Part shown: in pieces, positions 8,354 through 36,252 of the stretch
Layout: every line of letters starts with the position of its first letter
How positions within the stretch are numbered: position 1 is the stretch's first letter
Assembly: GCA_963827955.1 (NCBI GenBank)
Contig: CAWHDJ010000018.1
Location: 989,297 to 1,053,296, forward strand
DNA from: an uncultured delta proteobacterium
GTDB taxonomy: Bacteria; Myxococcota_A; Polyangia; Polyangiales; Polyangiaceae
Reading direction: 5' to 3'
Length of the DNA stretch: 64,000 nt
The notes under the pieces: model-generated
Told to the model about the DNA's origin: nothing
Databases searched by the model: none
What the model saw: only the letters and a program-made list of their open reading frames with translations
Made by a program: the position numbers and the translations under genes

Positions 8354-8802
8354 CACCGGCCTCCTTGTGCGCGCCGGCCCGGACGACCTTGAGCACGAGC
8401 GTCGCCCATGCTCCCAATAGGTCGCGCCGCACGTCCGTCGGTAGCGCGCCCAGTCGAGGTGGATCGGGTCGATCGATCGGGTGCGGTTGCATCCACGGGT
8501 CCGCTCGGGGGCTTGAGGTTGCCTCGTGGAGACTCCTGCGGCGGACGGTGCTGCCGGTCCAGCATGTCGGCGACGGCATCCGCGAGCTCCACCAGTCCAC
8601 GCGCGGACAGCAGAACCTCGCGACCCCCGACCTGTGGCGGTGCCACAGGCGGGCCGCGGTCGGTCCACTCCTCGGGCAGCACGATCATCTCGCGCTTGGA
8701 CCCCTCGATCTGAACGTAGCGGCGCCCGTCCGGCGCGGTGTACGCGTGAAGCAGGACGAACCGGCGTCCTCGGAAAGGATGGATCGGCAGGGTCACCGTC
8801 AC
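8353..8802 (-). CDS. small hypothetical protein immediately upstream of the recombinase and translationally coupled to it (GTGA and ATGA overlaps). Possible recombination directionality factor or accessory protein.
   Basis: 149-aa ORF. The N-terminal 90 aa are protein-like ('MTVTLPIHPFRGRRFVLLHAYTAPDGRRYVQIEG...'). Its stop overlaps the recombinase ATG. Confidence 0.45.
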   Translation of the reverse strand: MTVTLPIHPFRGRRFVLLHAYTAPDGRRYVQIEGSKREMIVLPEEWTDRGPPVAPPQVGGREVLLSARGLVELADAVADMLDRQHRPPQESPRGNLKPPSGPVDATAPDRSTRSTSTGRATDGRAARPIGSMGDARAQGRPGRRAQGGR

Positions 8803-9476
8803 GAAGCGCGAGGACTCGGTGATGTCGGGTGCATTCTCCGACGTGCGTCTTCGTGTAGGCCGAGCACCAGCGCTTCCCGAGGTCGCCCGTCTTCATCGGA
8901 AACTGCCGGCGATAGCCGGGCTTGTCGCTCTCGCCGCCCGCGCGCTCGAGCCCGTACGGAGTCTCGAACAGGTACGCCGCTGTCGGGGTTTGGTCGCGGA
9001 GCATCTCGCCCTCGAACCCGCCCACCTTCCAACTGAAGTAGATGCGCACGCCGAACGCCGCGGCGATTCTGGCGGCAATAGTCTCGCGTGCAGGGCCAAT
9101 CCATCAGCGTCGAGCCCTCACGGCCGTCGACGTCGTGATGCCAGAGCTCGATGCGTTCCTGTGGAACGCCGAGCAGCAGCAGCAAGAGCAGCAGCGCGAG
9201 GGAGTCCTTGCCGCCGCTGAAGGCCACGATGATCACGTCATACGAGAACGGGTCGACCGCGGGCTTGCTCGGCGTCGGTGCGAAGGCGACGTGACTCGGT
9301 GCGAACGCGAAGCGCTGCCACGGAAGCGGAGGGGGCGCATCACGTGCGAGCGGGCGCGACGACCGCAGGGCGCGGTCGGAAGAGGCTTCTGCAGTCGCTG
9401 CTCGCAGAAGGGCCCCGAGCGCGGACATCCGGCCCTGGTTGGGGGCAACGGAGACGGGCGCATCGAGGGCCGTCAT
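8799..9476 (-). CDS. PAPS-reductase family PP-loop ATP-pyrophosphatase (DndC/CysH-like), paralog B. Frame discontinuity near 9060; the 3' end is uncertain.
   Basis: 'VIIVAFSGGKDSLALL' is a PP-loop. The protein continues in another frame as 'FGVRIYFSWKVGGFEGEM...GLERAGGESDKPGYRRQF...KRWCS' (the R-x-x-ES motif). The ATG at 9476 overlaps the stop of the upstream gene. Confidence 0.55.
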   Translation of the reverse strand: MTALDAPVSVAPNQGRMSALGALLRAATAEASSDRALRSSRPLARDAPPPLPWQRFAFAPSHVAFAPTPSKPAVDPFSYDVIIVAFSGGKDSLALLLLLLLLGVPQERIELWHHDVDGREGSTLMDWPCTRDYCRQNRRGVRRAHLLQLEGGRVRGRDAPRPNPDSGVPVRDSVRARARGRRERQARLSPAVSDEDGRPREALVLGLHEDARRRMHPTSPSPRAS

Positions 9477-10495
9477 GAAGCCTCCTCGCTCACATACGAA
9501 GTGGCCGGGAGCCAGTCGCACCCCGTTGCCTTCGTGGCGCGCTCTGCCCGGCCGCACACCGGACACGGCATGCGCCGAGGGCGGTAGGGGGTCTCGATGT
9601 AGACGGCCAAGGGCGGCGCGCGGTAGCTGCCGTCGGGGAGCGTCCTGAACCCCATGATGGACAACTTCTTCCCGGCCTTCGTCGGCGGCTTGTTCGCCTC
9701 GAGCGCGGCCGTGCGCGCGAAGTCCCGGGGCAGCTCCCGCGCGAACGTCTGCCAGTCGCCGCGCGAGCCGTACGGGCAGAAGGTGCACGCGCTCTTCCGG
9801 GGCACGGGGAAGCCGAGGCGCTCGATGAGCGCTTGGCCCCGGCAGCGACACAGGTTCCGCTCGATCAACGGGAAACGGTTGTGGCGTCGGGCTTGGCCGG
9901 GCCGCTGTGCGCGTCGCCCGCCGGCGTTGGGGTCGTACGCCGCCCGCCCTTCCTCCGCTGCGTCGAACCCCACCCAGACCTCCACGTCGAGGCCGGAGAA
10001 GCGGTCGTCCATCCACCGCTCGAACCGCTCCACCTTGCCGACGATGGTGCAAATGCGGTCGGGGCCCGAGACGGGGATCTGGCGGCGCTCCTCCAGCCAG
10101 GCAAAGAGGGAGCGGCTTTCCCGCACGGGGTAGCTCGTGGTGTCGAGCGTCAGGAACTCGATGCCCTGGGCGGCGCAGAGCGGCTCGACGATCTCCCGGA
10201 TGTGGCTGTATGTGCCCGGCCACTCGCCCGGGTCGCGGCGCGCGGCATCGCCCACGTCGACGAACACGCAGACGTCGGGCGGCTCTCTCTGCTCGATGGC
10301 GTCGAGCAGCATCGCGAAGCTGTCGAGGCCCCCACCGTAGGAAAGCACACGGGGGCGCCGTGGTGCTGGCGCGCTCGCCGCTCGCAGCAGAGCCCCGAGC
10401 GCGGACGGGGAGTGCTGGCCTTCCGCGCTCGCCGCCCGCAACAGAGCGCCGAGCGCGGACGGCTGTGCGCGCGCGGCGCCAGGCACGGCGCTCAT
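9473..10495 (-). CDS. PAPS-reductase family PP-loop protein, paralog A. Its N-terminus carries two copies of the 'SALGALLRAASA' peptide.
   Basis: 'VLSYGGGLDSFAMLL' is a PP-loop. Several Cys motifs are present (CRCRG, CTFCPY, CPVCG). The ATG at 10495 overlaps the methyltransferase stop (ATGA). Confidence 0.6.
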   Translation of the reverse strand: MSAVPGAARAQPSALGALLRAASAEGQHSPSALGALLRAASAPAPRRPRVLSYGGGLDSFAMLLDAIEQREPPDVCVFVDVGDAARRDPGEWPGTYSHIREIVEPLCAAQGIEFLTLDTTSYPVRESRSLFAWLEERRQIPVSGPDRICTIVGKVERFERWMDDRFSGLDVEVWVGFDAAEEGRAAYDPNAGGRRAQRPGQARRHNRFPLIERNLCRCRGQALIERLGFPVPRKSACTFCPYGSRGDWQTFARELPRDFARTAALEANKPPTKAGKKLSIMGFRTLPDGSYRAPPLAVYIETPYRPRRMPCPVCGRAERATKATGCDWLPATSYVSEEAS

Positions 10496-11265
10496 GCCGC
10501 ACTGCTCACACGCGGGCGGATCGCGCTCCGCGCCGGTGGCGTCAGGAGCCGGGCCTCTACCGCCACGCGGCACCAGTGGGGGACGATGTCCACGGCGATG
10601 CAGCGCAGGCCCATCGCCCGGCAGACCGTCAGCTCCGGCCCCGTGCCGAGATACGGCACGACGACGACGTCCCCCCGCCGGAGCTTCGCCCTCTCGCGGA
10701 ACACCCACTCGACGAGCGCTACCGGCTTCTGCGTCGGTCCGAGGTGCGCCACGCCCGTCTCGCTTGCGCGTGCGACGCCGCGCCAGAGATGCGTGAAGCG
10801 ACGGATGGGGGTGCGGAGGTTGGTCCACGCCAACTCACCGTCACCGCCGTCGTTGCTGCCCGTTTCGGCGCGCTTGTCCCAGAAGAGCCACCCGCGCTGG
10901 TCGGGGAGCCGGCTCGCATAGTGGTTGGCGCCCCAGAGCACGATCCGAGGGAAGTGGAGAAGGTGCGACGGGTCGAACGGACGATCGTTGCCAGCCATCG
11001 GAGGCCAATCGTTCGCGCGCGGCCTGCCTCGGCCGCCGACCAGCCGGCCCCCGCGCCCGCGCCGAGCGCCGTCGAACCGCTGGCGGGGATCGAACGGCGG
11101 GTCCGCATGGACCAGCGCCACGTCCTCGGGCCGGAGGCCGAGGGCGCGGAGCCGTCGCGGAACGACCTCGCGGCAGTCGCCGGCGTGCACTTCGATGTCG
11201 CCGTCGTTGTAGACGAGCCCCGCCTCGGCCCGCGCAGCGCGAAGCCGCGCGGCGAGGCCGGACAC
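10492..11265 (-). CDS. beta-class N6-adenine/N4-cytosine DNA methyltransferase (CcrM/M.PvuII-like arrangement)
   Basis: Motif order is 'VALVHADPPFD' (DPPY/F), then 'GPTQKPVALVEWV' (HPTQKP-like), then 'VVVPYLGTGPELTVCRAMG' (FxGxG-like). A GTG start with an AAGGTGG RBS lies just after the TAA of the upstream gene. Confidence 0.75.
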   Translation of the reverse strand: MSGLAARLRAARAEAGLVYNDGDIEVHAGDCREVVPRRLRALGLRPEDVALVHADPPFDPRQRFDGARRGRGGRLVGGRGRPRANDWPPMAGNDRPFDPSHLLHFPRIVLWGANHYASRLPDQRGWLFWDKRAETGSNDGGDGELAWTNLRTPIRRFTHLWRGVARASETGVAHLGPTQKPVALVEWVFRERAKLRRGDVVVVPYLGTGPELTVCRAMGLRCIAVDIVPHWCRVAVEARLLTPPARSAIRPRVSSAA

Positions 11266-11281
11266 GCGCCCGGCGCCCACC

Positions 11282-12404
11282 TTACGCCTTGCCCTTCTTC
11301 GCGAGCATCGCGAGCAGCTCCTCGACGATCGGGCGGCTCTCGGCGATCCATTGCACCAGGCTGCGCCGCATCTCACGCGTACCGCCCTTCTCGAGCCGCA
11401 CGCGGGTGTCTTCGACGTCGAGCGACATTTCGCCCGAATTCACGGGCCACGGCGCGGCCGGCAGCTTGGCGAGGAGTGCGCGAGCACGTCCTACGGCGTC
11501 CTTCGACGTCGCCGCCGCGGGCGTCGCCTTGTTGCTGGCCATGGACGCGTACCGCAGGCCCAGGGCCAGGGCGAGGCGGCCATTGAAGCTCAGGTCGCCG
11601 CTCGGGATGCCGGCTTGGTCGAGCATCTGCTCCGCAGACTGCTCGCTGCCCCGCCGCTTCCAGAGCTCCTCCGCGTCGTCCCGCGCCTTCCACCGTTTGC
11701 GAAACCCCGCAGCCCATTCTTCGTGCGTGCGAACGGACCGTGCCGCGTTCGCTTGGATGGCCGGCACCGCCTCGCCGGCGCGGTGCAGCCGCACCCGCAG
11801 CGCCCCCGCGAGACGAGCGCGGAGGTTGAGCCCTTCGCGCGCCACGCCGGCCTCGTCGAGGATCGCGTGCAGCCGCTCTTCCAGCACCGGGCACTGCCCG
11901 TCGACCTCGGGCTCGTCGGGGTAGTCTGGCGCCGGCATCGCCGGCATCGCCGGCGTCGCTGGCGTCGCCGGGGGCGCCGCGCTCTCTTTGGCTGCATGCA
12001 GCAGCGCCGAGAGCGGCGACGGAGCGGCCCCACCGACGGCCACATCCGGCGCCGGCGCCGCGGCGCGCTCAAGGGGGAGCGCCGCGGACGAGAGGACGGT
12101 CCCGCCTTCACCCCGCGGGCAGAGAGCAGCCTCGGCCGGCGTGAGGCTCTCGCTCTCCGGCCGGAGCTCGATCTCGTGGGCGTCATCGAGCGAGAGGAGC
12201 GCGCCGTGGATCGCGTCGAGGTCGAAGCCCTTGGCGATCAGCGCGCGCACCACGTCCGGGATCCGCACGACGAGCGAACGGGGATCCGCCTGGCGCCGCA
12301 GCTCGGCGAGGACGGGGAGCCGGGTTGGGCGTGCCCAGGTCACGGCCGGAGGCCCTCGTGGTCGAGATCCACGGCGTTCGCGATGAGAGGGCGGCGGCGG
12401 TTCA
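11282..12404 (-). CDS. hypothetical protein with an internal 'SPLSALLHAAKESAAP' motif. Apparent frame discontinuity near its 5' end; a likely ATG overlaps the stop of the giant gene.
   Basis: Protein-like from 'VTWARPTRLPVLAELRRQ...'. An alternative ATG-initiated frame ('MNRRRPLIANAVDLDHEGLRP') overlaps the TGA of the upstream gene. Confidence 0.45.
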
Positions 12405-15400
12405 TTTCGGGACGACCGTGCAGATCGTGGCCGGCTCACCCTGGCTGTTGACCCCTTCGCGCACGATGGTCGCGACGACCTCGGTCTTGACCTTGCCCCC
12501 CTTCGTCTTGACCTTGATCCTCTCGCCGGGCGTGGGGGCAGGTCCCTCGACCGCGATCCCCCATTTGTTGTAGCCGAGGCTCTTGTACTCCGCGAAGGGT
12601 CGCTCCACGGGCGTAGACGTGGCCCTCCCTGCTGCCGCAGAACCGGCCCGGCCCGGAGCGAGGTCCCCGAGGCCCATGGCGTCGAGCAGCGCGTTGACCA
12701 CGTGCGCCTGCCCGCGGACGGTGTAGGTCATGCCGACCCGTTTGGCGGAACCCTCCGGGTCGAAGATGACGCGGCCGTCGGGCGTCTGAAGCTCGTAACG
12801 GCCCAGCACCATCTGCATCGAGTTGCCGGGCAGCGCGCGGGCGGCGTCCTTGAAGACATCGTCGGCGAACACCATGTCGGACACGACTCGGACGTGCTCT
12901 GCGCCGGCTCGCGCGGGCGCCGGCGCCGGCCGCGGCACGAGGTCGCCCATGCCGAGCGCCTCCATCGTCGCGGCGAGCCCCTTGCCGTAGATCCAGTGAG
13001 AGACCCCGGATTGACCAGGAAACTCGACGCCGCGCATCCGGTCAAACTCGATGTCGCCCTGCGGGGTCACGACGGAGAACGCACCCAGCTCCAGCTCCTT
13101 GACCGTGTTGCCCGGCATGTCGCGAAGGATGCGGAGGAACTGCGTGTCGCCGTACAGCTTCTCGCCGCGGCGCTGGACGTGCTTCCTGAACTCGTCGGTG
13201 GGCTCCTCGGCGCGCCGCGGCAGGCTGTTCTCGTCGGGCTCCTCGAGACGCGGCGCCGGGGGCGTGCCCCCCACGTTGACCGGGGGCGTGGCGGGCCGGC
13301 GCACGATGACCGAGGGTTGGACGCCCGCGGCGGGCGCCGTAGAGCGGTCTACCCGGATGGTCGCGATGAAGGCGTCGAGCGCCGCTCTCACGTCTGCATC
13401 GCTCTTGCCTTGTGCGACAGCGGTCTTCGCGACGGCGGCGATCCGAGGCGTGTCCAGCAGGTTGACCTGCACGCCTTGCAGCGCGGCTTGAGCGAGGCGG
13501 TTCGCGCGCCTCTCCTCCGCCGCGGAGAGCGCCGTGCGCCGCGCGCCGCCCGCCTCCCCCCGCTCGGGTGCGGTAGGCGCGGTCGGCGCCGCCGAGATGA
13601 CCTCGTGGTGCGGATTGCGGAGGCGCGTGATGACCTCGTGGAGCGCGTCCCTGAACAGGTCGGTCGAGACGGCGCCGGGGGAGGTGACGGCCGCCTCCAA
13701 CTGTTTGATCGCCGCCTCGACGTCGGGGACCACCAGCGTGTTGCCCTCCATCGCCCCCGGAAGGAAACGCGCGACCGCCGCACGCTGCACGGTGCTCAGT
13801 CCCTCCAGCCTGGTCCCCGCGCCCGCACGTACCGCCGCAGAAGCCGCGGGCTCAGGCCCCCCACCAACGCGTGCCGCGACAGGGGCAGCGGGCGCCGAGC
13901 GCCGAGCGGCGGCGCTGGGTCCCGTCTCGTCCGCGTCCGTCTCGCCGGCCTCCTCCCTGCCGGTCTCCGCCTCGCCGGTCTCCGCCCCGCCGGTCTCCGC
14001 CTCGCCGGCCTCCGCTCCGCCAGCCTCCGCCTCGCCGGCCTCGGCTCCGTCGGTCTCCGCCTCGCCGGCCTCCGCTCCGCCGACCTCAACCTCGCCAGCG
14101 TCCTTCTTCTTCTTCGCCTTCAGCAAGGCAGCCCTGGCAGCCTTCTGCTCGGCCGTCGCGCCGGAGAGCAGATCGGACGGCAAGCCCAGGGCCCACCAGT
14201 ACCGGGCGCACGCCAACAGCGCGCCGTAGGAAGCATCCGAGATCGGCGCGAGCGCCAAGAACTCTTCGTAGCCGGCCCGGGTGGGCGGGAGGATCGCGTC
14301 GAGCCGCTGTTTCACGCCGACGGTGAGCACGCCGCCGCGAACACCGGGAACCTCGAGCTTGTCGGCGTCGAGGGTGAAGCGGTCTTGGAGGTCGTTTAGA
14401 TGGGACGTGATGTCGGCGCCGTAGCGGGCCCACATCTTCGTGACCCACTCGTCGGTCGCATCCACCCAGTTCAGCTCCCGCAGGACCTTCTCGGTGGTCG
14501 TGGAGAGATGACGCGCGAGCTTGGGCAGGATCTCCCCCCGCATGACCCCGTCCATGCGCACCTCATCGTCCGCCGGCCAGTCGCTCGCGTCCGTGATGCG
14601 GTGCTCGGGGAGCAGGTGCAGCTCGCCGATCTGGGCGAGCCTGACGACGCGCCACTCCACCTGACCGACCGACCGAGCGCCGATGGTGTAGCCGTCGCGG
14701 ACCCTGCCGTACTCGTCGAAATTGAGCACGCGGTGGTCGCGATCGTCAGGGCTCTTGGTGCGCAGTCCCTCGTAGAGAGGCGCGACGGCCTTCTCGTAGA
14801 CCTTGACCAGCTCGGAGGTCCCGCTGGGGGTCTCCCTGTTCTCGGTCTTCGACGTGGGCACGAAGACCAGCATCGTGTGGTCGCGCGCCGCTTGGGCCCA
14901 CTCTCCCCAGGGCCATACCTTGGGGTCGACCCGGGAGACGTCGGCCAGGCGCAGCTCGCCTTCGGCCCGGAGGCGATTGGCCCTCCCAAGCTGCTGCTCG
15001 GCTTCTCGCGGTGCGTTGCCGCATCGGTCGAATTGTGGCGTTCCGGCTTCCGGTTGGGCCTCGGCCCATTCGGCGGGCAGGTTGAGCAGCTCCCCGACCT
15101 TGAGCGGCTTCCACGCCGGCTCGTGCTTCTTCTTCCTCTTCCGCGGGTTCACGCGGTCGAGCTCCTCCTCCCAGTTGTCGCGGTGGTAGGCCCCGAGCTT
15201 TCTCGCGATCGACACCTTGCTGTCCCCGGGCCTTACCCGGTACAGCGCTTGCTCTTCCGTCTTCTTCTCCTGCTGCTGCCTGGTGCCCTGGGCCTCGATG
15301 CCGGGCCGGTCCGCGGCGCGTGCCATGCTGAAGAAGAACCCCGCCGTGCGGAGCGTCGCCGAAGCATTCGCAGCGGTCTTCGCGTCCTGCTCGGCCTTTC

Positions 15401-18400
15401 TCTTGGCCTCCACCGCCGCGAAGAGGAGCCGCGCCTTGACGGGATCGCACGCGATCATCGCGAGGATCTCTTCCGGCCCCATGTTCATTTGCGCGCCGGG
15501 GTTGTTGGTCTCGCGCGCTTGCCCCTCGATGAGGTCCGCCATCCAGGCCCGCTTGCCCTGGATGAGCGTAAACTTCATGGAGTCCGGGAAGCACTTCATC
15601 ATGAAGTAGTAGATTTCGACCCGGGAGAACTGGTTTCCCTGTCGCCAGGCGCGGCCATTTCGCTGCTGAAGCGTCGCAGGGTCCCAGGGCAGGTCCACGT
15701 GATAGACGCGGCACGTGCGCCTCTGGAGGTTGATGCCTTCATACGCCACCTGATTCGCGATCACGACGTCGTACTTCGGCTCCACGGCGGGGAACGTGGT
15801 CGGCATACCCGTCGCCGGATCCAAAAACGTGAGCTCGGGCGTGCCGTTGAAGTCGGCGGCGATCCGCTGGCGCGCGTCCGCCGAATGCTCGGGGTTGTGG
15901 GGGTCGGCGTTGAGGATGGCGATGCGGGACCTGTCGATGCCCGCTTCCTCGAGCACCATGCGGAGCCACACGTGCGCCGCGATGCTCTCGACGAAGACGA
16001 TATGGCCGCAATCGGGTCGCTCCAGGATCAGGTCCCGTACGGCCCGGAACTTCGGGCTGCTTGGAGAGCGGACGCTCTCCGCGTTCTCCCAATTCCAGAG
16101 CGCCTCGAACACCGGGGCGCCGGTATCCTTGTCCACGCCGACTTGCTTGCGGTCGTCCAGGTTCGCGTGGATACCGACGAGCCCGAGCAGCGCCAGCAAG
16201 CCGAGCGGGTTGCCCAGCTTGGGGTTCGCGAGCATCGCCTCGATCCTCTTCGCGTAGTCGAGGCGCTTGCGCTCCTGCTCGTCGTCGCCGACGACCTGAA
16301 TCTGGCGCGAGATCGGCTTCGGGAGCTTGAGCCCCTCGTCGAGGCCGATGGCGAGCGGGTAGCCCATGCGATCGCACACGTTGCCGAGCAGATCGAGCCA
16401 CGTCCTGCCGTCCCCGAGCCGGTGCTGCGCGAGGGCCACGTTGCGCGCTGCCGCCTTGAGCCTGGGAGTCTCGTCCTCGGGCGGCTGGAGGGCGTTGCCC
16501 TCCGAATCCGGTGTCTCCTCCGGGACGAGGCCCCGTGCGGCCTGGATGCCCTTCTCGACGTCGACGGAGGCCCAGCCCCATACCCGAGCGATTCCGTCGA
16601 CCGATCGTCCCTGCTTGTCGGTGAGCTCCAGCCACGCCGCGTGCCGCACCGGCGCGCCGGCCTTCTCCACGTCCTCTGCGGTCTCAAATTCGCCGTACCA
16701 GAAGATGGTGTCGCGCAGCTCGTGCAGGTTCATGAACCCCACGCAGGCGGATGCCGTCTTGGCGTTGCCCACCATGTCGACGACGATCTTCGTCTCAAGG
16801 CGGCAGTAGCGGTCGATGAACTGCTCGGGGTCCTCGATACCCTGACGCGCGAAGGCGTCGTGGGCGATGTACTGAATGAGGTTGTAGAACTCGAGCGGCG
16901 AATTTTTCGCGGGCGTTGCGGAGAGGAGCACCACGCCCGCGCCGCCGGAGCGCCGGCGCACGGTCATGGCACGGAAATCAAGCTGCCACGCGCGGTTGGA
17001 GCCCTCGCCCGCCGCCCCCATAAATTTCGGCACGCCGAATTCTCGCGGCGCGGGCAGATAGAGATTTTTGTAATTCTGCGCTTCGTCGACGATCAAGAGG
17101 TCGACGCCGAGCTGGTCCCAGGTGAGCCCCGGGTCGAACCTCTGGCCCTTGGGGAGTTGGAGCTTGCTCGCGACCCACCCCGCCGTGCTCTCCTTGAGCA
17201 CGACCTCCTCGCGCTCCGTCAGGCCGTCGTCGCTGCGCTCGTCCTCATCCTCCTCGTCAACCTCGACCTCGCCGCCGGGGCCGATCTTGCCGCCGATCTC
17301 GGTGTCCTTACCGCTGGTGCGGCCGGGGTGCTTCGCGGCGTTCCTGCGGCGGAGCACCAGATTCCGCTGGATCGCGGCGGTCTGCTCGACGTAGTCGACG
17401 ATGTCCCCCGCGACATCTTCGTGCGGATGAACGACGAGTACGTGACCAACATGACGTCGAACTCGCCGGCTTGGAACCTCGTCCACTTTTCGGCGCGCTC
17501 TTCGGGCGTGTCGGTCTCGCTGGTGTGTTTGCCGGTGTTGCGACCCGTGGAAATGACCTTGCGATTGGCCCCGATGACGCCGACCCGGTAGTCCGGGAGC
17601 GCCAGCGCAAGCTCCGCGACCCAGTTCCACACGATGCTGTTGGGGACGACGATCACGGGCCGCTTCGCCCAGCCTTCTTGGCGCGCTGCCGCGAGGATGG
17701 CGGCGCCCGTGTACGTCTTGCCGACCCCCACATCGAACGCGACGAGGCCGCCGCGGTTCGCCACGACACGCCGCGCGCCCGCGTTCTGGTGGGGCCTCAG
17801 CGTGACGCGGTTTCCCCACCGCGCGAGGGGCAGCGGGTCGATCGCGTAGCGCTTGGGCTTGTACCCCTGGAAGGCCCGCTGGTAGGCCCGTTCGATGATC
17901 TGCTTGCGACCTTCCGTGGCCGAGCACCAGGCTTTGAACGACTTGTTCCAGGCGTCGGCCTGCTCGACACGGATGTTGTCGATGTTGTCGTCCTTGTTCT
18001 TCTTCTGCGGGCGGAACAGGCTGCGGTCGTGGTTAATCCAGCCGAGGACGTTGCCGACGTCGTCCTGCCAACCTCCCTCGATGTCCTCGTAGTCCTTGCC
18101 GACTTCCTTGACGAGGCCATCCACGCGCTCCAGGCGCACCGTCCCGACCTTCGCCAGCGTCTCGATCCAACACTCGACGAGTTGGAGCGGGATCCACGCC
18201 TGCTGGGGGGAGAAGGAGTCCTTCGTGATGTCGTCGAAAAATGCCGGCTTGATGACGTCCAGAAGCCGCGCAACTTGGTCCGCGGCCTGCTCGTCCCCAG
18301 CGTCCGCGCGCTCCTTCGCGCGGTCGTGCTTGTCCCAAAGGTCGCCGGCGAAGTAGTCCTCGGGCGGCACGAGCTCGCCGGGACGGTCCTCGCACCAGCC

Positions 18401-28419: not shown

Positions 28420-28535
28420 GGCTTCCCCGAGCGTGCGCCGCCGCTCGATGCGCGCGCAAGGCGCTTACCCGCCTATGGATTTCACTTATCAGCCAGGATC
28501 CGTGGAAGTTCCTAGACCCGTTGTGGGATGATCCC
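28420..28535 (-). promoter_or_regulatory. conserved ~115-bp upstream element, copy 1. AT-rich invariant core TGATAAGTGAAATCCATAG in the gene orientation. Ends at the ATG of the 1,742-aa gene.
   Basis: Aligns over its full length with copies at 33713..33828 and 36254..36367. It is the only AT-rich 19-mer in this 70% GC region. Confidence 0.6.
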
Positions 28536-29855
28536 AGGTTCGAGCTTGAGGATGCCGGTCCACCTCCGACGCGCGGCGATGGCGGCGGTCTTGCGGGTCG
28601 CTTCCACGCTGCCCACCGGGATCCAGTCCTCGCCCCGGAGCTGGCTCACCTGGAAGACGTGCGCCGCCGCGCTCCCCTTGCTGGAAGCGGGGCTCGTATC
28701 CTCGAGCAGGGGCAGTCGGCGCTTCGCCGGAACTGGGCCGCTCGCATCCACGAACTGGGGCGGACCACCTACCGGGCCGGTGTACTGCTCCTCGGGAGGC
28801 TCCATCGCGAGGTAGCGGTCCAGCATCGCCGGGTCCCGCCGCACGGCACGGATGAACTCCGCCATGGCCCCCGGCTTCGGGATGGCGCCGCGGAAGCCCT
28901 TCACGGTCCTGCCCCAGAGCCCTTCGATGCCTCGCAGACCCGCCTGGGCGGCGTCCTCGATCGCGATGATTCGGTCGGCAAGCACCGGATGGTCGCGCAC
29001 GAGGCGCGCGATTTCCCAGGGCTTGCTTGCCGGACAGAAATAGCATGCCGACTTGGGCGGGATTGGGATGCCTGCTGCGCGCAGCTCCGCCTTGATGCGA
29101 GCGCGATCCCACTGCCACTCCCTGAGCGGATAAACGTATTCGTAGTGGTCATCGTTCCGCAATTGGTGAGCGCGGCGGGAGTCGCGATAACCGTAGTCGT
29201 AGCCGATGGCTTTCACCACCTTGCCGCCACGTGCCCAGAGCGCCTGCGCGCGCGGGTCCTTCGCGAGCCACGCCTCTTGCGGCCGGATCTTCCACTCGGA
29301 ACTACACGACTTCTTACCGAACGCCTGACCCGGGAGCGACTCGTATGCGAGGCACTTCTCGCCGAGGGTCGAGTACGGCATGCCCGTGACCTTCGACACG
29401 CTGGGGTTGCTGCGCACCATCACGAACTCCGGGAAACCGATGCTCCGCAGCCAGCGTTGCCGCTCCTCGCGGAATGCAATGGTCTCCGGCCATTCGTCGC
29501 CGGTTTCGGCGTGCAGGATAACGTCGGGCCTGACGCCCAAGCGGTGCAGGCCCTCCAGCATCCCCGTCGAGTCGACGCCCATGCCGTCCGCCACCACGAG
29601 CAGGGGCCGGGCCCAGGGCGGCAGTGCGATGAACCGGCGTAGCGTCATGGGGGGCTGCGAGCCGCCCGCTGGCGCCTGGCCGGTGCGCGCGCGCAACCTC
29701 GTCGACGGGGTCGCGCGCGCCCGGCGCTTCCTCGACGGCGCCTTCGCCGGGGCATGCGCCTCGGCGGCCTCGCTCGCTGCTCGGAGCTGCGCTGCGAGTC
29801 CGCCCTGCGGGGCTGCTGCCGCCCGCAGCATCCCGGCAAGCAGGCTCGACGCCAT
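28512..29855 (-). CDS. PAPS-reductase family-like protein, paralog C (degenerate PP-loop). N-terminus has the 'LLAGMLRAAAA...LAAQLRAAS' motif.
   Basis: 'LLVVADGMGVDSTGML' is PP-loop-like. 'GYRDSRRAHQ' fits the R-x-x-(E)S-x-x-R motif. 'ACYFCP' is the C-terminal Cys pair. Confidence 0.5.
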   Translation of the reverse strand: MASSLLAGMLRAAAAPQGGLAAQLRAASEAAEAHAPAKAPSRKRRARATPSTRLRARTGQAPAGGSQPPMTLRRFIALPPWARPLLVVADGMGVDSTGMLEGLHRLGVRPDVILHAETGDEWPETIAFREERQRWLRSIGFPEFVMVRSNPSVSKVTGMPYSTLGEKCLAYESLPGQAFGKKSCSSEWKIRPQEAWLAKDPRAQALWARGGKVVKAIGYDYGYRDSRRAHQLRNDDHYEYVYPLREWQWDRARIKAELRAAGIPIPPKSACYFCPASKPWEIARLVRDHPVLADRIIAIEDAAQAGLRGIEGLWGRTVKGFRGAIPKPGAMAEFIRAVRRDPAMLDRYLAMEPPEEQYTGPVGGPPQFVDASGPVPAKRRLPLLEDTSPASSKGSAAAHVFQVSQLRGEDWIPVGSVEATRKTAAIAARRRWTGILKLEPGIIPQRV

Positions 29856-29891: not shown

Positions 29892-31598
29892 TCAGGCAGC
29901 GGCCTGCGAGGCAATCATGCGGAGATCGTCGGGGTGGTGCTTGGCCCAGTCCTCGAAACCCATATAGGGATCGGTGAGGTTGTTTTCCCGCATCCAGGCC
30001 GTCACCGGCTTGCCTGCGCCCGCGCGCCAGAAACGCTGAATCTCCGCCAGCTCCGCCTCGCGCTGCTCCGGGGTCTGGTTCGGGTTGGCCGCCAGGTGTC
30101 CGGCGCGAAGCTGGGCGAAGACAACGTCGTCGGGGCCCATGCTCCGCACGGTGCGCGGACCCTCGTGGGCGGCGGGCGGCGCCGCGGCCCTGGTCGCGCT
30201 GGCCGGAGCCGGCTCCGCCGCGGCCGTCGCGGGCCCCCTCACGCTCGGCGGCTTGGCCGTCCGCTTCGAGGGGGGCTTCGCCGCGGGCTTCTTTGCCGCC
30301 GGCTTCGTCGCCGCCGGCTTCTTCGCGGCGGGCTTCTTCGCGGCCGGGGGCTTCTTCGCGGCGGGCTTCTTCGCCGCCGGCTTCTTCGCGGCGGGCTTCT
30401 TCGCCGCCGGCTTCTTCGCGGCGGGCTTCTTCGCGGCGGGCTTCTTCGCCGCCGGTGCCCCGGGCTTCTTGGACGCCTTGGCATGCTTCTCGGCCAGCGC
30501 CGTGAGACGGGCGCGATCGTCGCCGGAGACCGAGATCACGTCCACCGCCATCGCGCCGGACTTCGCCGCCTCGAGCTCGGTGCGCTTCTCGGCCGCGACT
30601 TGGGTCGCGCGCTCCTTGGTGAACGGGCCGTACACCGTCAGCACGTTGCCATCCGATTTGACCTCGACGAACGAGCGCGCCTTCGACGCCTTCGAGGTCT
30701 TCGCCGCTTTGTTCGCCGTCCTCGCCGTCTTCTTCGCGGCCTTCCGCGCAGCCGCGGTGTTGGACTTCGGGGGCCTGCCACCCTTGCCGGCGGCGTAGAC
30801 GCCCCTGTGCCCCGGCGCACCGTCGTTGTCGAACCGCGCCTTGGCCTCGGCCAGGGCTGCCTTGACTGCCGCCAGCGGCGTGCCGGGCGCGCGCTTGTCG
30901 AGGATGCCCTGGATCCTCTCCCTCGACACGCTTGCCGGATGGCGGATCAGGACTTCCTCGCCCGAGCCTCCAACCTGGAACGAGCCCGAGACGTAGGTGC
31001 TCCTGCTGGCCGGCTTGCGCGTGCGCCGGCCAGAGGGCGCGCCCGCCGATCGCGGTGCAGCCGCTGACCCGCCGGCGGGGACCCCCTTGGCGACGTGGCG
31101 TCTGTGGATGTGCTCGAGGAACTCCGCGGTCGCGTTGGCGGACAGCATGCTCGTCTCCGTCTCGTACGAGCTCGGCCCCGAGGCGTGGCCCGTCCACACC
31201 ACTTCGTTGCCCGCAATGGCCCTCGCCTTCCTCCCGCTCTCGTGCACCATGAGCTCGTCGCCGTTTTCCATCCTGACGAGGAAGGAGTCGCGGTGGCCGC
31301 TCGAGCTACTCCCGCCGTTCGTGGCCGCCGAGGCGGGGTGAGCGGCGCGGCGATGGGCTGCCGCTGGGCGCGAGGGGTGTGCGCCCGCATGGCGGCTCGT
31401 GCGGGTCCCGGAGGGGGCACCGCCCGTCGTGGTGCGATGACCGCTCGGCGGAGTCTTCTCCACGCTCCCCGACGTGGTGCCGACACGATGAACCGTGGCG
31501 GTGTGCTTGCCCTCGGCCAGGTCCACGTTGACCGTCACGGCGAAGCTGTTCTCGTTGCGGTTCCGCGTGGTGATCTGCTTGTGCTTGGTGATCGACAT
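29892..31598 (-). CDS. hypothetical protein with a long (PAAKK)n Lys/Ala/Pro repeat, histone H1-like
   Basis: 568-aa ORF. The ATG at 31598 (MSITKHKQITTR...) is protein-like. The central region is 'KKPAAKKPAAKKPAAKK...' for about 25 repeats. Confidence 0.6.
   Translation of the reverse strand: MSITKHKQITTRNRNENSFAVTVNVDLAEGKHTATVHRVGTTSGSVEKTPPSGHRTTTGGAPSGTRTSRHAGAHPSRPAAAHRRAAHPASAATNGGSSSSGHRDSFLVRMENGDELMVHESGRKARAIAGNEVVWTGHASGPSSYETETSMLSANATAEFLEHIHRRHVAKGVPAGGSAAAPRSAGAPSGRRTRKPASRSTYVSGSFQVGGSGEEVLIRHPASVSRERIQGILDKRAPGTPLAAVKAALAEAKARFDNDGAPGHRGVYAAGKGGRPPKSNTAAARKAAKKTARTANKAAKTSKASKARSFVEVKSDGNVLTVYGPFTKERATQVAAEKRTELEAAKSGAMAVDVISVSGDDRARLTALAEKHAKASKKPGAPAAKKPAAKKPAAKKPAAKKPAAKKPAAKKPAAKKPPAAKKPAAKKPAATKPAAKKPAAKPPSKRTAKPPSVRGPATAAAEPAPASATRAAAPPAAHEGPRTVRSMGPDDVVFAQLRAGHLAANPNQTPEQREAELAEIQRFWRAGAGKPVTAWMRENNLTDPYMGFEDWAKHHPDDLRMIASQAAA
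30275..30455. repeat. 15-nt tandem repeat (gcgggcttcttcgcc)n encoding the AAKKP repeats on the minus strand
   Basis: Read directly from the sequence. Confidence 0.7.
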
Positions 31599-31625: not shown

Positions 31626-33630
31626 TCATGCGAAGACTCGGTAAAGGCTGTAGAGCAGCGCGGCGGACACCAGAGGGACCGCCGGCGAGCCGCCCGACGT
31701 CGTCTCCTCGGGCTCCGCGCCGCGAGGCCCGTGCGGTTCTGCGGGTTCGGCGAGCGTGACCTCGAGATCCGCGCCGTAGAAGTAGCGGAGGATGCCGTTC
31801 CACCGCCAACCCCGAGTGGCGAGCGCGTCGGCCCCGTTCTGCGAGAGGCAGCCGCGGTTACGCCTGTTCCGCGGGTCGGCGACCGGGCTCGGGCAGGGGT
31901 GGACGGCGCTGCCCACCAGCCCCTCGTTGTAGGTCACGAATCGCTCGGTGGGGTACTTCGCGCTGACGATGCCTCGCAAGGCCCCGGGAGCCCAGACCGC
32001 GCCCGCGACATGGCTCCCGAGGATGAGCGCCCCCTTCCAGAGGGCGACGCCGCCGCGCGTCTCGGCGGCGGCACGGACCGCCAACGGCCTTGGGGGCGAG
32101 AGGGCGACCTGGAAGCGCTGGCTGTTCGGGATGGGGTGCGCCGCCGTGCCGAGCGTGGGATCCGCGGCGAGCGCCTGCTGGACGTAGGTGCGGGCCGCGA
32201 TCGCCACCGCCTTGAGCGCATCGAGGCGCCGCGAAGGGCTCTCGCCGGCTACGACGAGGGCGACGTAGTCTTCGAGGTCCAGCTCGCCGAGGCCGGTGAC
32301 GACCGCGCGCGCACGGAGCTGCACGTGCTCCAGCGCGGGCTCCTGCGCGCCGCTCGACGGGTGCGCGCCGCCGGACGGGTACTCCAGCCAACCGAGGAAC
32401 GCGGGTTCGTCGACGCGGTGGGTGCGCTCGGCCCAGGCGTCGCCGCTGTTGGCCTCGATCGTCCGGAGGGTTCCGGCGCCGTCGGGCGGCGCGCTCACGC
32501 GCCCGATGTGCCCGCTCCCGCCATGCACGGGATTCCTCCCCGTTGCGTCTCCACACGGCGCCGTCGCCGACCTTCGCGCGATAGCCGTCGCCGCGCGGAT
32601 GGAATCTCCCGCTGCGCACGACGTCGGCGACGCGCCCGGTGTAGGCGTGCGGAAGTCGCTCGCCGGGCCGGAGCGCCTGGCGCCCGGCCCAACAGAACCC
32701 CCAGGCGCACCAGTCGCTGCCCTTGGCCCCCCCGTACTTGGCGATCCCCGGCCCCCAGTTGCTGCCCGCGGGCTCCTCATGGACGCCGGCGTCGAGCTCG
32801 CCGCGCGCGACCGCGAGCGCGCGCTCGCCGAGCGTCGTGTCCGCATGGCCCGAGGCCGGTGCTTCGGCGCGCGGTGCGCCAGGCGTCTGCGCTGACCCAC
32901 GGGGCTGCGCGCCCGGTGGAACGCGAGGCACCGCGCGCGGCGGTGCATCGAGGGCGAGCAGATCCCGCAGCTCCTCGCACGCCTCGGGGAGGACGTGCTG
33001 GGCCTGGTAGATGTGCCCGGCCTTGTCGTGGCCCCCGGCCGAGTAGATCGCGAGGTGGCCGCGCCAACCGTCGCCCGTTCCGCCCGGCGCCTCGCGATGC
33101 ACCCGGATCTCGTGGTCGGGCGGCTCCGGGAGGAGGTCGAGACCCGTGGCCAGTTCCGCCATCGCGCGCGTCGAGGTGTAGGCCGGCTCCGTCTTGATGT
33201 AGCTGTGCGTGATGACCGTCGTGACCTTGCCGGCGCGCGCATCGCGCACGATCCCCTTCACGTAGTCCCGTTGCCATGCGTGCGGGGGATAGTCCCCGTG
33301 CATGCCGTCGCAGAGGACGAGCGCGAACGCGGGCGCTCCCGCGAGTCGCAGTGCGCGAACGCGCTGGCAGCCGGCGGAGAACCCGATGAGCGCCGCGAGC
33401 CAGAGCGGGCGCCCCACCTGCGCTTCGGCCCACGCGAGGATCTCCTGCCATGTCTCGGTGGCGTAGGGGTTGAGGCCGACGACGCAGGGACGCGGGCCGA
33501 GCGCCGCGAGCACCGCCCCAGGAACACCGCTCGGTGTTTCCGTGTCGCGCTGGCCGCGCTTGTCAGGCATCGGCGACGCGAAGCACACGAGCGCGCCCCC
33601 GGTCCCGCGCTGAACGAGCGCGAGGGCCAT
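31626..33630 (-). pseudogene. multidomain cell-wall hydrolase: N-terminal domain of unknown function, CHAP-like cysteine peptidase, then a SpoIID/LytB domain. Frame discontinuity at about 32520-32530.
   Basis: 'GSDWCAWGFCWA' and 'GHIGRVSAPPDGAGTLRTIEANSGD' match the CHAP Cys and His regions. 'DALKAVAIAARTY...GCLSQNGA...RYFYGADL' is the SpoIID signature. The two halves lie in different frames. Confidence 0.65.
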
Positions 33631-33828: not shown

Positions 33829-33861
33829 CGGTGCGCCGCAGCAGGTCCGCGCCGAGCGTGG

Positions 33862-36252
33862 TCATCCGGACACAGAAACAGGTGCGTGTGACACGCCGAG
33901 CCGCTCCGCCTCGTCCGCCTCGATCGGTCCGCACTCCACAACGTCGTAGACACGCCCGCAGCCCACGCAGGCGAGCTGGCGGCTCACGATCGACGCGCGC
34001 GCCCCTCCCATCCGGCGCTCCAGCTCCGCATCGGTCTCCCCGTTCAGCCGGCCGGTGAGGACGTCGCAGCCGCACGACGCGCAGACCGGACCGCCGGCAC
34101 CGAAGCGGAAGGCGAGCCGGCCACGCTCCAGCGCCTCGGGATCCAGGTACGCCAGCTCCTCCGCCTGGATCGCGAAGTGATACGCCCGCGCCTCCGCCTT
34201 GGAGATGCCGCTCACCCGCGCCGCGCCCCTCCGGGCCGCGTCGGTCACCCTCACCGGAGGGATGATCCTACGCGGTGGCGGGGCGGGAAGGGCGCTCCAG
34301 TAGCGCTTGACGACCCTCAGCGCCTCCTCGGCGCGCTCCTCGTCACCCAGCAGCGCCCGGGTGATGGCGGAGCGGACCCGCTTCGTCAGCACGAGGTCCT
34401 CCAGCCAGTGCTCGTCGGCGCTCCGCATGGCCTCGGCGACTGCGAACGAATCCTTGCCGAGCGCCGGGTAGATGGCGTCCAGGAGCGCGCGCGTCGGCGT
34501 CGGCGCCACGGCTCGACCCTCCGCCCGCGCGTACTCGGCCTCCCGGAGAGGGGCGCGCGCACGGAGTAGGTTGTCGTAGCGCTTGCGGAGGTCCTTCGTC
34601 GCGCGAGGGATCCTGCCCAGGCGCTGAGCGGCAAGGGTGGCGGCGACCAGCTCGTCGAAGAGCGCCCGCACCTCGGGCGTGTTGAGGTCCCACGCGAAGA
34701 CGTCGGCGTCGTGGAGCGTCGAGAACGCCCGAACCGCTACCCCGCTCGGCACATGGCTGACCTGGAAGGGAAAGCCCGCGGCTTCCTGCCGCTCGAGGTT
34801 CTGGTGGACGACGATGTCGCCGTGCCGCGCGAACACGTCCACGTCGACCGACCGCATCACGTCGGTTCGCCAAATCGGTGCCTTACCGACCACGGGCGCT
34901 GTCTCGGGGCGCTCCTCGGCGTGGCCTCCCTCGACGTGCAGACCGCGGTCGATGGCGTTCGCAGCGACGAAGAGCTCCTCGCTGACCCGCCCCTCCGCCT
35001 CCGCGGCGACGTTCCGCAGATGGACTGTGGCAGCGACCCGGGCATCATGCGCCGTCTGGCCGGGCACGTCGGGCGTCCGCTCGATCGCCACGCCCTCTTT
35101 CCGCAGGGCATCCGCGATCTTCGTCTCGACGCTCACAACTCGATCCGGCGGCCACAACGAGGCGAAGGTCGACGCGCGTCGAATCAGGAATTGGGCGATC
35201 TGCTGCTTCTCGACCTGAGACACGGGAGGCGCTGGCCGGGGCTGCGGAGGCCCCGCGCCGTACTTCGCCACCATCCGCTTGCGGTCCCACTCCTCGGCGC
35301 GCGCGACGAAGGCGGGAAGGTCAGTCGCCGGGACGCGGATGCCGCCGATGCCCAGGCGACGCTCCGCGCCGTTGCCGTCCGGCTTTCCCCACACGTCGAT
35401 GTCGCGCGGGTTCATCTCGTCGACCGTGAGGCGCGTGATCCTGCCCTCGAACTCCTGCGTCCCGTGACGGATCACCTTGCCGCGGCGCTCCCGTGTGTCC
35501 TCGCTCCAGCGCACCCGCGTGCCGACGTCGGGCCACACCATGTACCCGCCGACGCTCCCGAGGTAGCTGAACTCCTCCCGCAGTTGCGCCCTCGCCGCGG
35601 CCTCACGCGTCGGGTTCGGGACCTCCCCTCGCGCACGCGCCTGCTCGTCGAGCCAGTGGAGGCGCTGGCCGATGTTCATTCGTTCGCCGCGCTTTTCGCC
35701 GAACGGCATCGTGAGCGTCAGGCCCGCGTTCCTCCGCACTTCGCTGTCGAGCCAGTGCAGCGGCTCTGTATAGTCCTTGCCGGCGAGGATGATGACGTCG
35801 GCGGCCTCATGGCCGAAGTCGCGAAGCAACTGCTTGCGGACGCGCTCCCCCCAGTCCTTCCGCGCTGCCGGGCTGAGGGCCCTCATGGAGCGGTTGTAGG
35901 TTGCGATCTTCTCCGTGGTCGGGATGACCCCGTGCTTCGCGGAGAGGATGCGGATGTGGTCCTCCCTGGTGACGGCGCGCGCGTAGGCGAGGCTCTTCTC
36001 GAAGAGCACCGACGCGGAGTAAAGCTCGGCGGCGGGGATCCGCTTCCCGTGCGTTTTGACCTTCGACGCGCTGCACGCGATGAGGACGATGAGAGGACGG
36101 CGCCGCTCGGCCTTGGCGGCGTCGGTCGCTGCTCGGAGCAGCGCGGCGAGCGCACCGGCGGAGCCCCTCGCCGCTTGGAGGAGCGCAGCGAGCCCACCGG
36201 CGGGGCCCGGTGCGGCCGCTGCCCGAAGTCTCGCAGCGGGGTCCGTGAGCAT
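33862..36252 (-). CDS. hypothetical 797-aa protein. N-terminal domain resembles YaaA/DUF328 (peroxide-stress/DNA-binding family). C-terminal Zn-ribbon. N-terminus carries three 'LAALLRAA' repeats.
   Basis: 'PLIVLIACSASKVKTHG...ILSAKHGVIPTTEKIATYNRSM' parallels the YaaA pattern 'LILISPAKTL...MLSGLYGVLRPLD..PYRLEM' (inference). 'CASCGCDV...CVGCGRVYD' is a Zn ribbon. The ATG at 36252 abuts copy 3 of the upstream element. Confidence 0.55.
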   Translation of the reverse strand: MLTDPAARLRAAAAPGPAGGLAALLQAARGSAGALAALLRAATDAAKAERRRPLIVLIACSASKVKTHGKRIPAAELYSASVLFEKSLAYARAVTREDHIRILSAKHGVIPTTEKIATYNRSMRALSPAARKDWGERVRKQLLRDFGHEAADVIILAGKDYTEPLHWLDSEVRRNAGLTLTMPFGEKRGERMNIGQRLHWLDEQARARGEVPNPTREAAARAQLREEFSYLGSVGGYMVWPDVGTRVRWSEDTRERRGKVIRHGTQEFEGRITRLTVDEMNPRDIDVWGKPDGNGAERRLGIGGIRVPATDLPAFVARAEEWDRKRMVAKYGAGPPQPRPAPPVSQVEKQQIAQFLIRRASTFASLWPPDRVVSVETKIADALRKEGVAIERTPDVPGQTAHDARVAATVHLRNVAAEAEGRVSEELFVAANAIDRGLHVEGGHAEERPETAPVVGKAPIWRTDVMRSVDVDVFARHGDIVVHQNLERQEAAGFPFQVSHVPSGVAVRAFSTLHDADVFAWDLNTPEVRALFDELVAATLAAQRLGRIPRATKDLRKRYDNLLRARAPLREAEYARAEGRAVAPTPTRALLDAIYPALGKDSFAVAEAMRSADEHWLEDLVLTKRVRSAITRALLGDEERAEEALRVVKRYWSALPAPPPRRIIPPVRVTDAARRGAARVSGISKAEARAYHFAIQAEELAYLDPEALERGRLAFRFGAGGPVCASCGCDVLTGRLNGETDAELERRMGGARASIVSRQLACVGCGRVYDVVECGPIEADEAERLGVSHAPVSVSG

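Follow-up and report, generated by a model that had tools for sequence, protein, structure and literature searches.

Tagged proteins of the island

The stretch analysed here, called the window, comprises 64,000 nucleotides of contig CAWHDJ010000018.1 from an uncultured Polyangiaceae bacterium and has a GC content of 70%. Its minus strand carries an island that extends from a large serine recombinase gene (6073-8400) up to about 36.3 kb. The gene order is recombinase, PAPS_B, PAPS_A, N6/N4 methylase, g11282, a giant gene, the gene of a 1,742 amino acid (aa) protein, PAPS_C, an H1/HC2-like gene, a SpoIID-type hydrolase and a DUF6884 fusion, and several genes begin within or directly next to the end of the one before. 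Genes were called via third-position GC. The first-pass annotation of this DNA had noticed a short peptide at the amino termini of several unrelated enzymes of the island and had proposed that it is a modular targeting or docking tag. Its copies on PAPS_A (two), PAPS_B, PAPS_C and the YaaA-like protein are present as described on the minus strand, as is the internal copy of g11282, and copies on the methylase and on the 1,742-aa protein are added to the list. A regular-expression scan combined with codon alignments gives the consensus [S/G]-x-L-[G/A]-A-x-L-[R/Q/H]-A-A. The proteins with an amino-terminal copy (the clients) are the three PP-loop paralogs, the DUF6884/YaaA-like fusion, the N6/N4 methylase and the 1,742-aa protein; in all, at least seven unrelated DNA-modifying or anti-restriction proteins of the window have the same short helical peptide at their ends. 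The copies (scores are explained below) are:

10427-10459, minus strand: PAPS_A, first tag copy, SALGALLRAAS, a predicted helix at residues 14-24
10373-10405, minus strand: PAPS_A, second tag copy, SALGALLRAAS, a predicted helix at residues 30-40 with only synonymous differences from the first
9393-9425, minus strand: PAPS_B tag, SALGALLRAAT, single-seed score 44
11230-11262, minus strand: methylase tag, SGLAARLRAAR, profile score 29.0
11987-12019, minus strand: internal tag of g11282, SPLSALLHAAK, within an Ala/Pro linker that joins two domains
28357-28389, minus strand: amino-terminal tag of the 1,742-aa protein, GRLAALLRDAE, score 25.8
26743-26775, 25120-25152 and 23788-23820, minus strand: weaker tag-like motifs in linkers of the 1,742-aa protein, at residues 549, 1090 and 1534
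29814-29846, minus strand: PAPS_C, first tag copy, SLLAGMLRAAA
29772-29804, minus strand: PAPS_C, second tag copy, GGLAAQLRAAS
36124-36198, minus strand: two strong tags of the DUF6884 fusion, GGLAALLQAAR (36166-36198) and GALAALLRAAT (36124-36156)
near 36228, minus strand: weak third copy of the DUF6884 fusion, ARLRAAAA, just upstream of the strong pair

The genes that carry these copies, together with the giant, are the following (L001-L215 label related or compared loci; P0001, P0127 and P0128 label homologous proteins):

8356-9476, minus strand: PAPS_B, second PP-loop paralog with the SGGKDS motif, frameshift near 9070, tblastn matches to PAPS_B of L001, L003 and L005
9473-10495, minus strand: PAPS_A, PP-loop ATP-pyrophosphatase (phage 'PAPS reductase' family) with conserved Cys pairs, catalytic core from residue 49
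10492-11280, minus strand: N6/N4 DNA methyltransferase with a DPPF motif (PF01555; phrog_67, E-value 6.4e-11)
12402-23242, minus strand: DarB-like giant of ~3,600 aa with an Eco57I-type N6 methylase and a SNF2 helicase
23191-28419, minus strand: 1,742-aa protein, no family match
28512-29855, minus strand: PAPS_C, third PP-loop paralog, core near residue 78 after a Pro/Ala/Arg-rich linker (phrog_424, E-value 3.4e-25)
33862-36252, minus strand: DUF6884 fusion protein with a YaaA-like fold (PF21818, E-value 4.3e-28)

PAPS_A is identical to P0001 and matches phrog_424 (E-value 6.8e-24); the best Foldseek matches of its model, which has a predicted local distance difference test (pLDDT) score of 83, are the TtuA/NcsA [4Fe-4S] PP-loop thiolases and PAPS reductase. 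In the fusion protein DUF6884 is joined to two modules that are separate, carboxyl-terminally tagged proteins in L003, L005 and L210 (tblastn of L003_7564, L003_6896 and L005_7816). No PDB match was found for g11282, and the 1,742-aa protein had none among the families, PDB, phages or plasmids searched. The gene models of the first-pass annotation needed revision at the giant, which is one DarB-like methylase-helicase open reading frame (ORF) with a frameshift near 17400, and at PAPS_B, the hydrolase and the recombinase, which are also frameshifted. The giant matches phrog_10089 'DarB-like antirestriction' (E-value 6e-39) and has long extra regions besides its methylase and helicase. Its amino terminus has no tag in the window; tag-like motifs are found at residues 440 (21893-21925) and 954 (20351-20383). 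These two, the three of the 1,742-aa protein and the g11282 copy are weak (scores 14-19) and all lie in Ala/Pro linkers. By score alone they are near background; what is telling is their position at module junctions. The H1-like protein, the hydrolase, the recombinase, the ParA and ribbon-helix-helix (RHH) partition genes described below and the small ORFs have no tag. Note that PAPS_C has an internal Met at residue ~70 (PPMTLRRFIALPP), the exact start point of the untagged L001 orthologue, so that an untagged isoform arising from an alternative start is conceivable.

Chance occurrence was assessed by two scans. The first had one PAPS_A copy as its only seed and is not circular. It gave scores of 44, 34, 27, 27, 27 and 26 to other window genes; among 185,706 positions in predicted proteins of other high-GC loci, 7 reach at least 24 and none at least 26. 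The second used a profile of the island copies, which themselves score 25-33 (a partly circular result, the same copies having trained the profile), and in its background of 172,333 positions 2 reach at least 20 and none at least 22. Six-frame noise rises to a score of 31, in non-coding frames only. A generic screen of 74 loci for common amino-terminal 10-mers (BLOSUM score of at least 26) could not separate the window from shuffled controls, which gave 3-4 genes; L005 alone stood out. This screen was too insensitive and was replaced by the seed and profile scans, with seeds from upstream regions filtered for Arg-rich noise of non-coding frames.

No background position in high-GC proteins thus scores like the island copies, contrary to the GC-driven low-complexity origin that the first-pass annotation had kept as an alternative. 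Its other reservation, that starts could be wrong and the motifs untranslated, does not hold either. In PAPS_B an ATG that follows a GAGGAGG Shine-Dalgarno site precedes the tag by 17 codons. Upstream of the PAPS_C tags only one codon could serve as start, an ATG 3 codons ahead, and there is a stop 15 codons upstream. For the methylase the GTG start candidates are the first and fifth codons past the g11282 stop, one and six codons ahead of the tag, and orthologues in other elements begin 2-4 codons past an in-frame stop, immediately ahead of the tag. These start and stop positions place the tags inside translated proteins. In the AlphaFold model both PAPS_A tags are helices (pLDDT 65-75) preceding the confident core, and the motif is predicted to be a short amphipathic helix of ~11 residues.

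Dialects of the tag in related elements

Alignment with homologues from other genomes, which the first-pass annotation had suggested, revealed that related elements have their own shared peptides on unrelated proteins. Eight related metagenomic elements (L001, L003, L005, L210, L211, L212, L213 and L214) have the same architecture with different versions of the peptide, here called dialects. About 150 kb of related loci were read in total, with 10-33 kb visible per element and several contigs frameshifted. The dialects are distributed as follows:

L005: SSFARIAAxFA, at the amino termini of three PP-loop paralogs, DpdA and a 294-aa protein, and twice in the carboxyl-terminal part of another protein
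L003: SPFAxVAAAFA, 12 copies, amino- and carboxyl-terminal, on PP-loop enzymes, both ends of DpdA, a C5 methylase and the carboxyl termini of two further proteins
L210: SPFAAAAAAL, 14 copies, including a methylase (phrog_757, E-value 5e-46) and 812-aa and 408-aa proteins of unknown function
L211 and L001: L[D/G]xLARLAA (LDGLARLAA), on PP-loop paralogs (four in L211, two in L001) and both ends of a 318-aa protein
L212 and L213: AFGALAELLTP / SFQALVEQLAP, on the DUF6884 protein
L214: GLGRIAHLLAP / LSAALARLAAP, on PAPS_C and a fusion-module protein

Eight copies in six L005 genes score at least 34, the next-best score there being 22. The L211/L001 dialect is also found on an L5_gp82-like protein, with an in-frame ORF confirmed in L211 only, and the L211 DUF6884 protein has four tag copies. 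The two closest full-length giants, P0127 and P0128 from two further contigs, carry four amino-terminal tags each, yet in other dialects. Tags are amino- or carboxyl-terminal, occur in 1-4 copies and are joined by Pro/Ala linkers. The register common to the dialects is a hydrophobic residue (L/F), two variable residues, a second hydrophobic residue (L/I/V) and Ala-rich positions that end with L, F or A; Ser or Arg usually precedes the tag and a Pro/Ala linker follows it. Internal tags stand at the module junctions of the 1,742-aa protein, the giant, g11282 and the L213 DUF6884 fusion, a position that fits with tagged ORFs which, once fused, would have left the tag in the linker.

Tags cluster by element and not by enzyme family. 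Their mean similarity is 31.0 between different enzyme families of the same element and 10.0 within the same family of different elements, a difference that none of 5000 label permutations reaches (0/5000), while the catalytic cores of PAPS_A are 72-77% identical across dialects. When tags of one element are compared, 967 nucleotide differences are at codon position 3, 490 at position 1 and 479 at position 2, and about a third of the codon comparisons among same-element tags are synonymous differences; the exception is one L003 tag pair, part of a duplicated two-tag carboxyl-terminal module, that is identical in DNA. Variation mainly at third codon positions means that the peptide is the conserved object, on which selection acts, rather than a DNA or RNA site or the product of recent gene conversion. 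A DNA- or RNA-level element at the gene junctions was ruled out on the same ground. The tag is a translated, modular and element-specific feature of DNA-modification and anti-restriction proteins.

Among the best 120 of 474 PAPS_A homologues most start right at the catalytic SYGGGLDS core, and amino-terminal extensions are found only in the clade closest to PAPS_A. These consist of tandem copies of other short peptides (SFKHLAVLL...SFAELARVLQ, LDGLARLAAVA...LRGLVAIARRA, SFASAAAALASPFAAVAAAFA). Orthologues of PAPS_C in L005, L210, L211 and L214 have their own dialect. A profile scan of genome contigs with the PAPS_A alignment retrieved distant or untagged relatives only, and INPHARED phages gave only matches of at most 27% identity. 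The PP-loop family is common in viral contigs, but scans for the tag that covered these contigs as well detected it only in L001, L003 and L005.

DpdA, of the 7-deazaguanine DNA transglycosylase family (PF23859), is encoded in L003, L005, L210 and L214 and is tagged except in L214. It is absent from the window island, which keeps DUF6884 with its YaaA-like fold. DpdC is a member of the related DUF328 family.

Some repeated motifs were noticed in compared loci. In the unrelated viral contig L134 (IMGVR_UViG_3300009008_000022) at least four ORFs have GWQAIPKGxKGGYRRR close to their start (nt ~450, 1150, 2670 and 8980), possibly a further case of a terminal tag that phage proteins have in common. 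In L090 a dense array of ~15 copies of one DNA repeat (~12.6-13.9 kb) adjoins a PP-loop gene and reads FQLRSRWTGSD in several frames of both strands. The sequence PPWRADLGVVRFDVDI(K/N)PG is found at ORF ends in different frames, three times in L128 (near nt 190, 2830 and 9890), three times in L133 and twice in L129, and is probably a dispersed DNA repeat.

Setting of the island and kind of element

The remaining genes of the island are untagged:

6073-8400, minus strand: large serine recombinase at the left end, frameshift near 8110-8235, 73-80% identity to the L001 recombinase
29892-31598, minus strand: H1/HC2-like protein of 568 aa with a (PAAKK)n DNA-binding tail of ~15 repeats and a carboxyl-terminal helical domain of ~55 aa
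31626-33654, minus strand: cell-wall hydrolase (SpoIID/LytB domain plus an amino-terminal domain), frameshift near 32500 (TIGR02669, E-value 8.7e-17)

Pfam Resolvase and Recombinase domains were matched on the L001 orthologue of the recombinase, and the hydrolase has orthologues in L001, L211 and L214. The carboxyl-terminal domain of the H1-like protein (at about 29895-30050) has the pattern W..GG....WM....F..W and is conserved in all elements for which that region could be read. The W-rich domain is also encoded by a small ORF of its own, which immediately precedes the DUF6884 gene in L213 and lies between the H1-like gene and PAPS_C in L214. In L212 a longer frame, probably a frameshifted one, immediately precedes the DUF6884 gene and has the domain at its carboxyl-terminal end.

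The island is flanked by genes for Ser/Thr kinases and an extracytoplasmic function (ECF) sigma factor, and names on the homologues of the giant include Myxococcota and Nannocystis, both of which suggest a myxobacterial host. The copy in the window is integrated beside its serine recombinase, like that of L001. L212, L213 and L214 come from three contigs of ~78 kb, the set of these being ERZ25039454 contig_6074, ERZ25039592 contig_6929 and ERZ25039538 contig_45426. In L212 and L213 a ParA-type ATPase, a small gene resembling an RHH protein and repeated DNA are found beside the DUF6884 operon; the repeats, translated as 'RHVGPG', lie between the ParA/RHH genes and that operon (8932-9669 in L212 and the equivalent L213 region) and are plausibly the centromere or iterons of a ~78-kb element. 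L215 is the far end of the L212 contig and has a SprT-like zincin gene. Judged by these genes the L212/L213 element would be plasmid-like or phage-plasmid-like, and the family as a whole probably consists of integrative or plasmid-like elements of Myxococcota.

At least four island genes change frame in their middle: the giant (17219-17927), the SpoIID hydrolase (32400-32900), PAPS_B (~9070) and the recombinase (8110-8400). The related ENA contigs L212-L215 have the same problem, and their names suggest long-read assemblies. The frame changes reflect either a decaying element or indel errors of long-read assembly. Left of the recombinase there is a second PAPS_B fragment, corresponding to the carboxyl-terminal half only and 52-58% identical to PAPS_B of L003 and L005. 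The ORFs of this left-hand region are 3858-4481, 3191-4093 and 2767-3234 (all minus strand). A Na+/H+-antiporter-like gene (4704-5957, plus strand) separates the fragment from the recombinase, a gene resembling the first gene of L003 adjoins it, and one ORF there has a tag-like DKLAALLEAAE near 2982 (profile score 23.1). A second element with another dialect could have left this region behind; alternatively, an integration site may have been disrupted here.

Function of the tag

The tag is best explained, with a probability of about 0.6, as an element-specific docking or targeting peptide that gathers the DNA-modification and anti-restriction toolkit of an element at one common partner. It would act as a short linear motif, a transferable helix of ~11 residues joined to its client by a flexible Pro/Ala linker. 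The clients would be PP-loop enzymes, DpdA, C5 and N6/N4 methylases, DUF6884/YaaA-like proteins and, in some elements, the DarB-like giant, together with the companion modules of DUF6884, the 1,742-aa protein and several proteins of no known function. One version common to all clients of an element implies recognition by one cognate, coevolving partner. The toolkit would be brought to one place and either kept with the element DNA for co-delivery into a new cell or tethered on that DNA, in which case the tag would be the non-covalent counterpart of fusing domains into one 'polyvalent' protein. Such co-delivery or tethering is the most likely purpose, because the clients match the classes delivered by polyvalent and Dar systems, because the DarB-like giant is itself a client, and because DarB of phage P1 uses its amino-terminal 30 residues as a capsid-targeting signal (PMC9024508). 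The modular tag of the first-pass annotation is supported by its translation, predicted helix, linkers, selection and dialects, while we infer the binding to a partner, the identity of that partner and the co-delivery or tethering outcome. Of the candidate functions listed in that annotation, recruitment to the giant as docking hub is weakened by the four amino-terminal tags on its two closest full-length homologues in sister elements. A P1-Dar-like packaging has its parallel in the capsid-targeting signal of DarB, but neither the window nor the ~150 kb of related loci contain recognisable capsid, portal, terminase or transfer genes.

Several observations weigh against the docking reading. No tag-binding partner was identified. 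Among the Pfam, PHROGs and NCBIfam matches of the island and the visible related loci there is no gene for a capsid, portal, terminase, prohead protease or type IV secretion system, a result that covers only parts of the ~78-kb elements, where many ORFs are frameshifted or lack annotation, and leaves unannotated small genes in L210 and L001. The ParA partition locus of L212 and L213 and the SprT-like gene of L215 speak for a plasmid more than for a phage. The work of DpdA and the PP-loop ATPases might be confined to the donor cell, with no need for delivery. The L001 orthologue of PAPS_C has no tag, the register of the cross-dialect alignment was chosen by eye, and the identical L003 tag pair indicates that duplication or gene conversion contributes to the uniformity within an element.

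A closely related but rather unlikely alternative is an on-DNA modification factory, in which the tags would serve not delivery but the gathering of the enzymes on a scaffold bound to DNA in the producing cell, for efficient modification of the element DNA. All clients being DNA-modifying enzymes agrees with it, and so do the 1-4 tag copies on Pro/Ala spacers and the ~155-aa amino-terminal domain that the PP-loop family of other phages has at the place of the tag (PAPS_A covers profile positions 156-397 of 460). The candidate scaffold would be the untagged H1-like protein through its W-rich helical domain; speculatively, multivalency might even give a condensate. A hidden Markov model of this conserved domain matches the window, L211, L212, L213 and L214 (E-values 1e-22 to 1e-32), the domain adjoins the multi-tag DUF6884 gene in L211 and L212, and its net charge appears complementary to the tag dialect in 4/4 cases, a suggestive count made by eye on a very small sample. 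Binding of the tags to this domain is speculative, however. Its single-sequence AlphaFold2 model is helical but of low confidence (pLDDT 64), too low for a fold search, and the L003, L005 and L210 fragments, which are partial contigs, show no H1-like gene. Such a factory is also compatible with co-delivery, as a DNA-bound scaffold would travel with the DNA. A degron or processing signal, by which a host or element protease keeps potentially toxic DNA-modifying enzymes short-lived or cuts polyvalent proteins and pro-enzymes at module boundaries, is improbable. Degrons of the ssrA and Lon type are terminal, hydrophobic and Ala-rich, as is the motif, and the internal copies stand exactly at module junctions. 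Glu often follows the tag (LRAASAE, LRAATAE, LRAARAE, AAFAE, ARFAE), and the prohead proteases of T4 and phiKZ cut after Glu; this residue is missing from many copies, e.g., those of L211 and L210. Conserved host proteases would not predict element-specific dialects with strict residue conservation, tandem degron copies are unusual, and the only protease gene recognised among the elements is that of the SprT-like zincin at the end of L215.

More doubtful still is a conserved host hub. The tags would then bind the beta sliding clamp or a ParA/MinD ATPase, or act as amphipathic helices that target the membrane, and the dialects would mirror different host species. The tags recall clamp- and PCNA-binding motifs, which are short, terminal and sometimes tandem and are found on many DNA enzymes. 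The ParB amino-terminal peptide, GLGRGLxALL, resembles MGLGRIAHLLAP of L214 and GGLAALLQAA of the window, and a ParA-like ATPase lies beside the DUF6884 operon in L212 and L213. The clamp consensus is QL[SD]LF, QxxLxxFF or QLxLxL; no dialect contains any of these. The hydrophobic spacing is one residue off that of ParB, there is no ParA in the window island, and no basic residue is common to all dialects, the L212/L213 tags being acidic and devoid of it, which disagrees with ParA activation and with electrostatic membrane binding. The existence of carboxyl-terminal tags also sets them apart from ParB-type peptides. The last alternative gives the motif no function at all and takes it for Ala/Leu/Arg low complexity of a 70% GC genome, untranslated upstream sequence or a DNA repeat read in frame. 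It could draw on the GC content, the generic 10-mer screen and the six-frame noise up to 31, but is very improbable and already contradicted by the results: background at the scores of the island copies is zero in real high-GC proteins, the tags lie inside ORFs, the peptide is kept while synonymous sites vary, and eight other elements show the same architecture built from other sequences.

Terminal targeting or docking peptides are known from several systems, and the unusual feature here is the clear, mutually exclusive dialects across sister elements. One likeness is with the P1 Dar proteins, which assemble stepwise around DarA and Hdf near the DNA (PMC12810830) and among which no consensus could be found (PMC9024508). 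In both cases a short amino-terminal peptide is carried by anti-restriction proteins, here including the DarB-like giants P0127 and P0128 of sister elements, and co-delivery is presumed. Capsid-targeting sequences of phages are often cut off after a Glu; in the elements a Glu follows many tags, though not all. The elements differ from P1 in having one clear consensus each, common to 6-10 proteins, in tags that are also carboxyl-terminal or internal and in 1-4 tandem copies, in clients that include DpdA, PP-loop enzymes and orphan methylases, and in the lack of capsid or prohead genes in the parts read. Encapsulin and microcompartment peptides load cargo onto a multivalent shell. They too are short, conserved and terminal (amino or carboxyl), sometimes repeated, and set by flexible linkers on unrelated co-encoded enzymes. 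The tag sequence is unrelated to the LTVGSL-type consensus, its clients act on DNA, and no encapsulin, HK97-fold or bacterial microcompartment (BMC) shell gene is among the Pfam and PHROGs matches of the island and the related loci read. The clamp/PCNA and ParB motifs share with the tag the principle of one short terminal motif on many DNA-acting proteins and one hub, and a superficial likeness to GLGRGLxALL, but differ in consensus and spacing, and the dialects are element-specific with no universal basic residue or glutamine. Twin-arginine translocation (Tat) signals consist of an amino-terminal S/T-R-R-x-F-L-K, a hydrophobic region and an AxA cleavage site; the window tags have no RR, tags are also found carboxyl-terminally and internally, and the clients are cytoplasmic DNA enzymes.

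Polyvalent proteins of phages and conjugative elements join many effector domains that are predicted to enter a new host together (Iyer et al. 2017, PMC5512222). That work does not mention PAPS-reductase or YaaA-type domains, and a limited term search found no shared terminal peptide in it. Similarities are the giant multidomain methylase-helicase, the three-module DUF6884 fusion, an element with a serine recombinase whose relatives have ParA, and methylase, helicase, cell-wall hydrolase and SprT-like zincin domains in the same elements. Domains of polyvalent proteins are covalently joined, whereas here many separate proteins have a common peptide and the same modules alternate between fused and tagged states across elements. 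The docking reading can be extended to a private peptide 'postcode' for each lineage, whose cognate, coevolving receptor would gather an interchangeable toolkit onto the element DNA or into a transfer particle; this extension is tentative and has somewhat less than an even chance. Just as tentatively, DpdA, the PP-loop thiolase-like enzymes, the methylases, DUF6884 and the DarB-like giant might be seen as a plug-and-play set of hypermodification and anti-restriction enzymes that replaces polyvalent proteins non-covalently, and the elements would have a natural, programmable system of protein-DNA co-delivery.

In the literature searched, no consensus tag common to DNA-modification or anti-restriction enzymes was found described. 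How mobile elements bring such enzymes to the right DNA in time is poorly understood, and a consensus tag in mutually exclusive dialects gives a direct experimental handle on this question. The tag could link DpdA-type 7-deazaguanine enzymes, the phage PP-loop 'PAPS reductases' and DUF6884 as one functional set and could serve as a sequence flag for new toolkit members among 'hypothetical' proteins, for example the 1,742-aa protein, the 294-aa protein of L005 and the 812-aa and 408-aa proteins of L210. If co-delivery is true, the tag would be usable to load chosen proteins onto transferred DNA.

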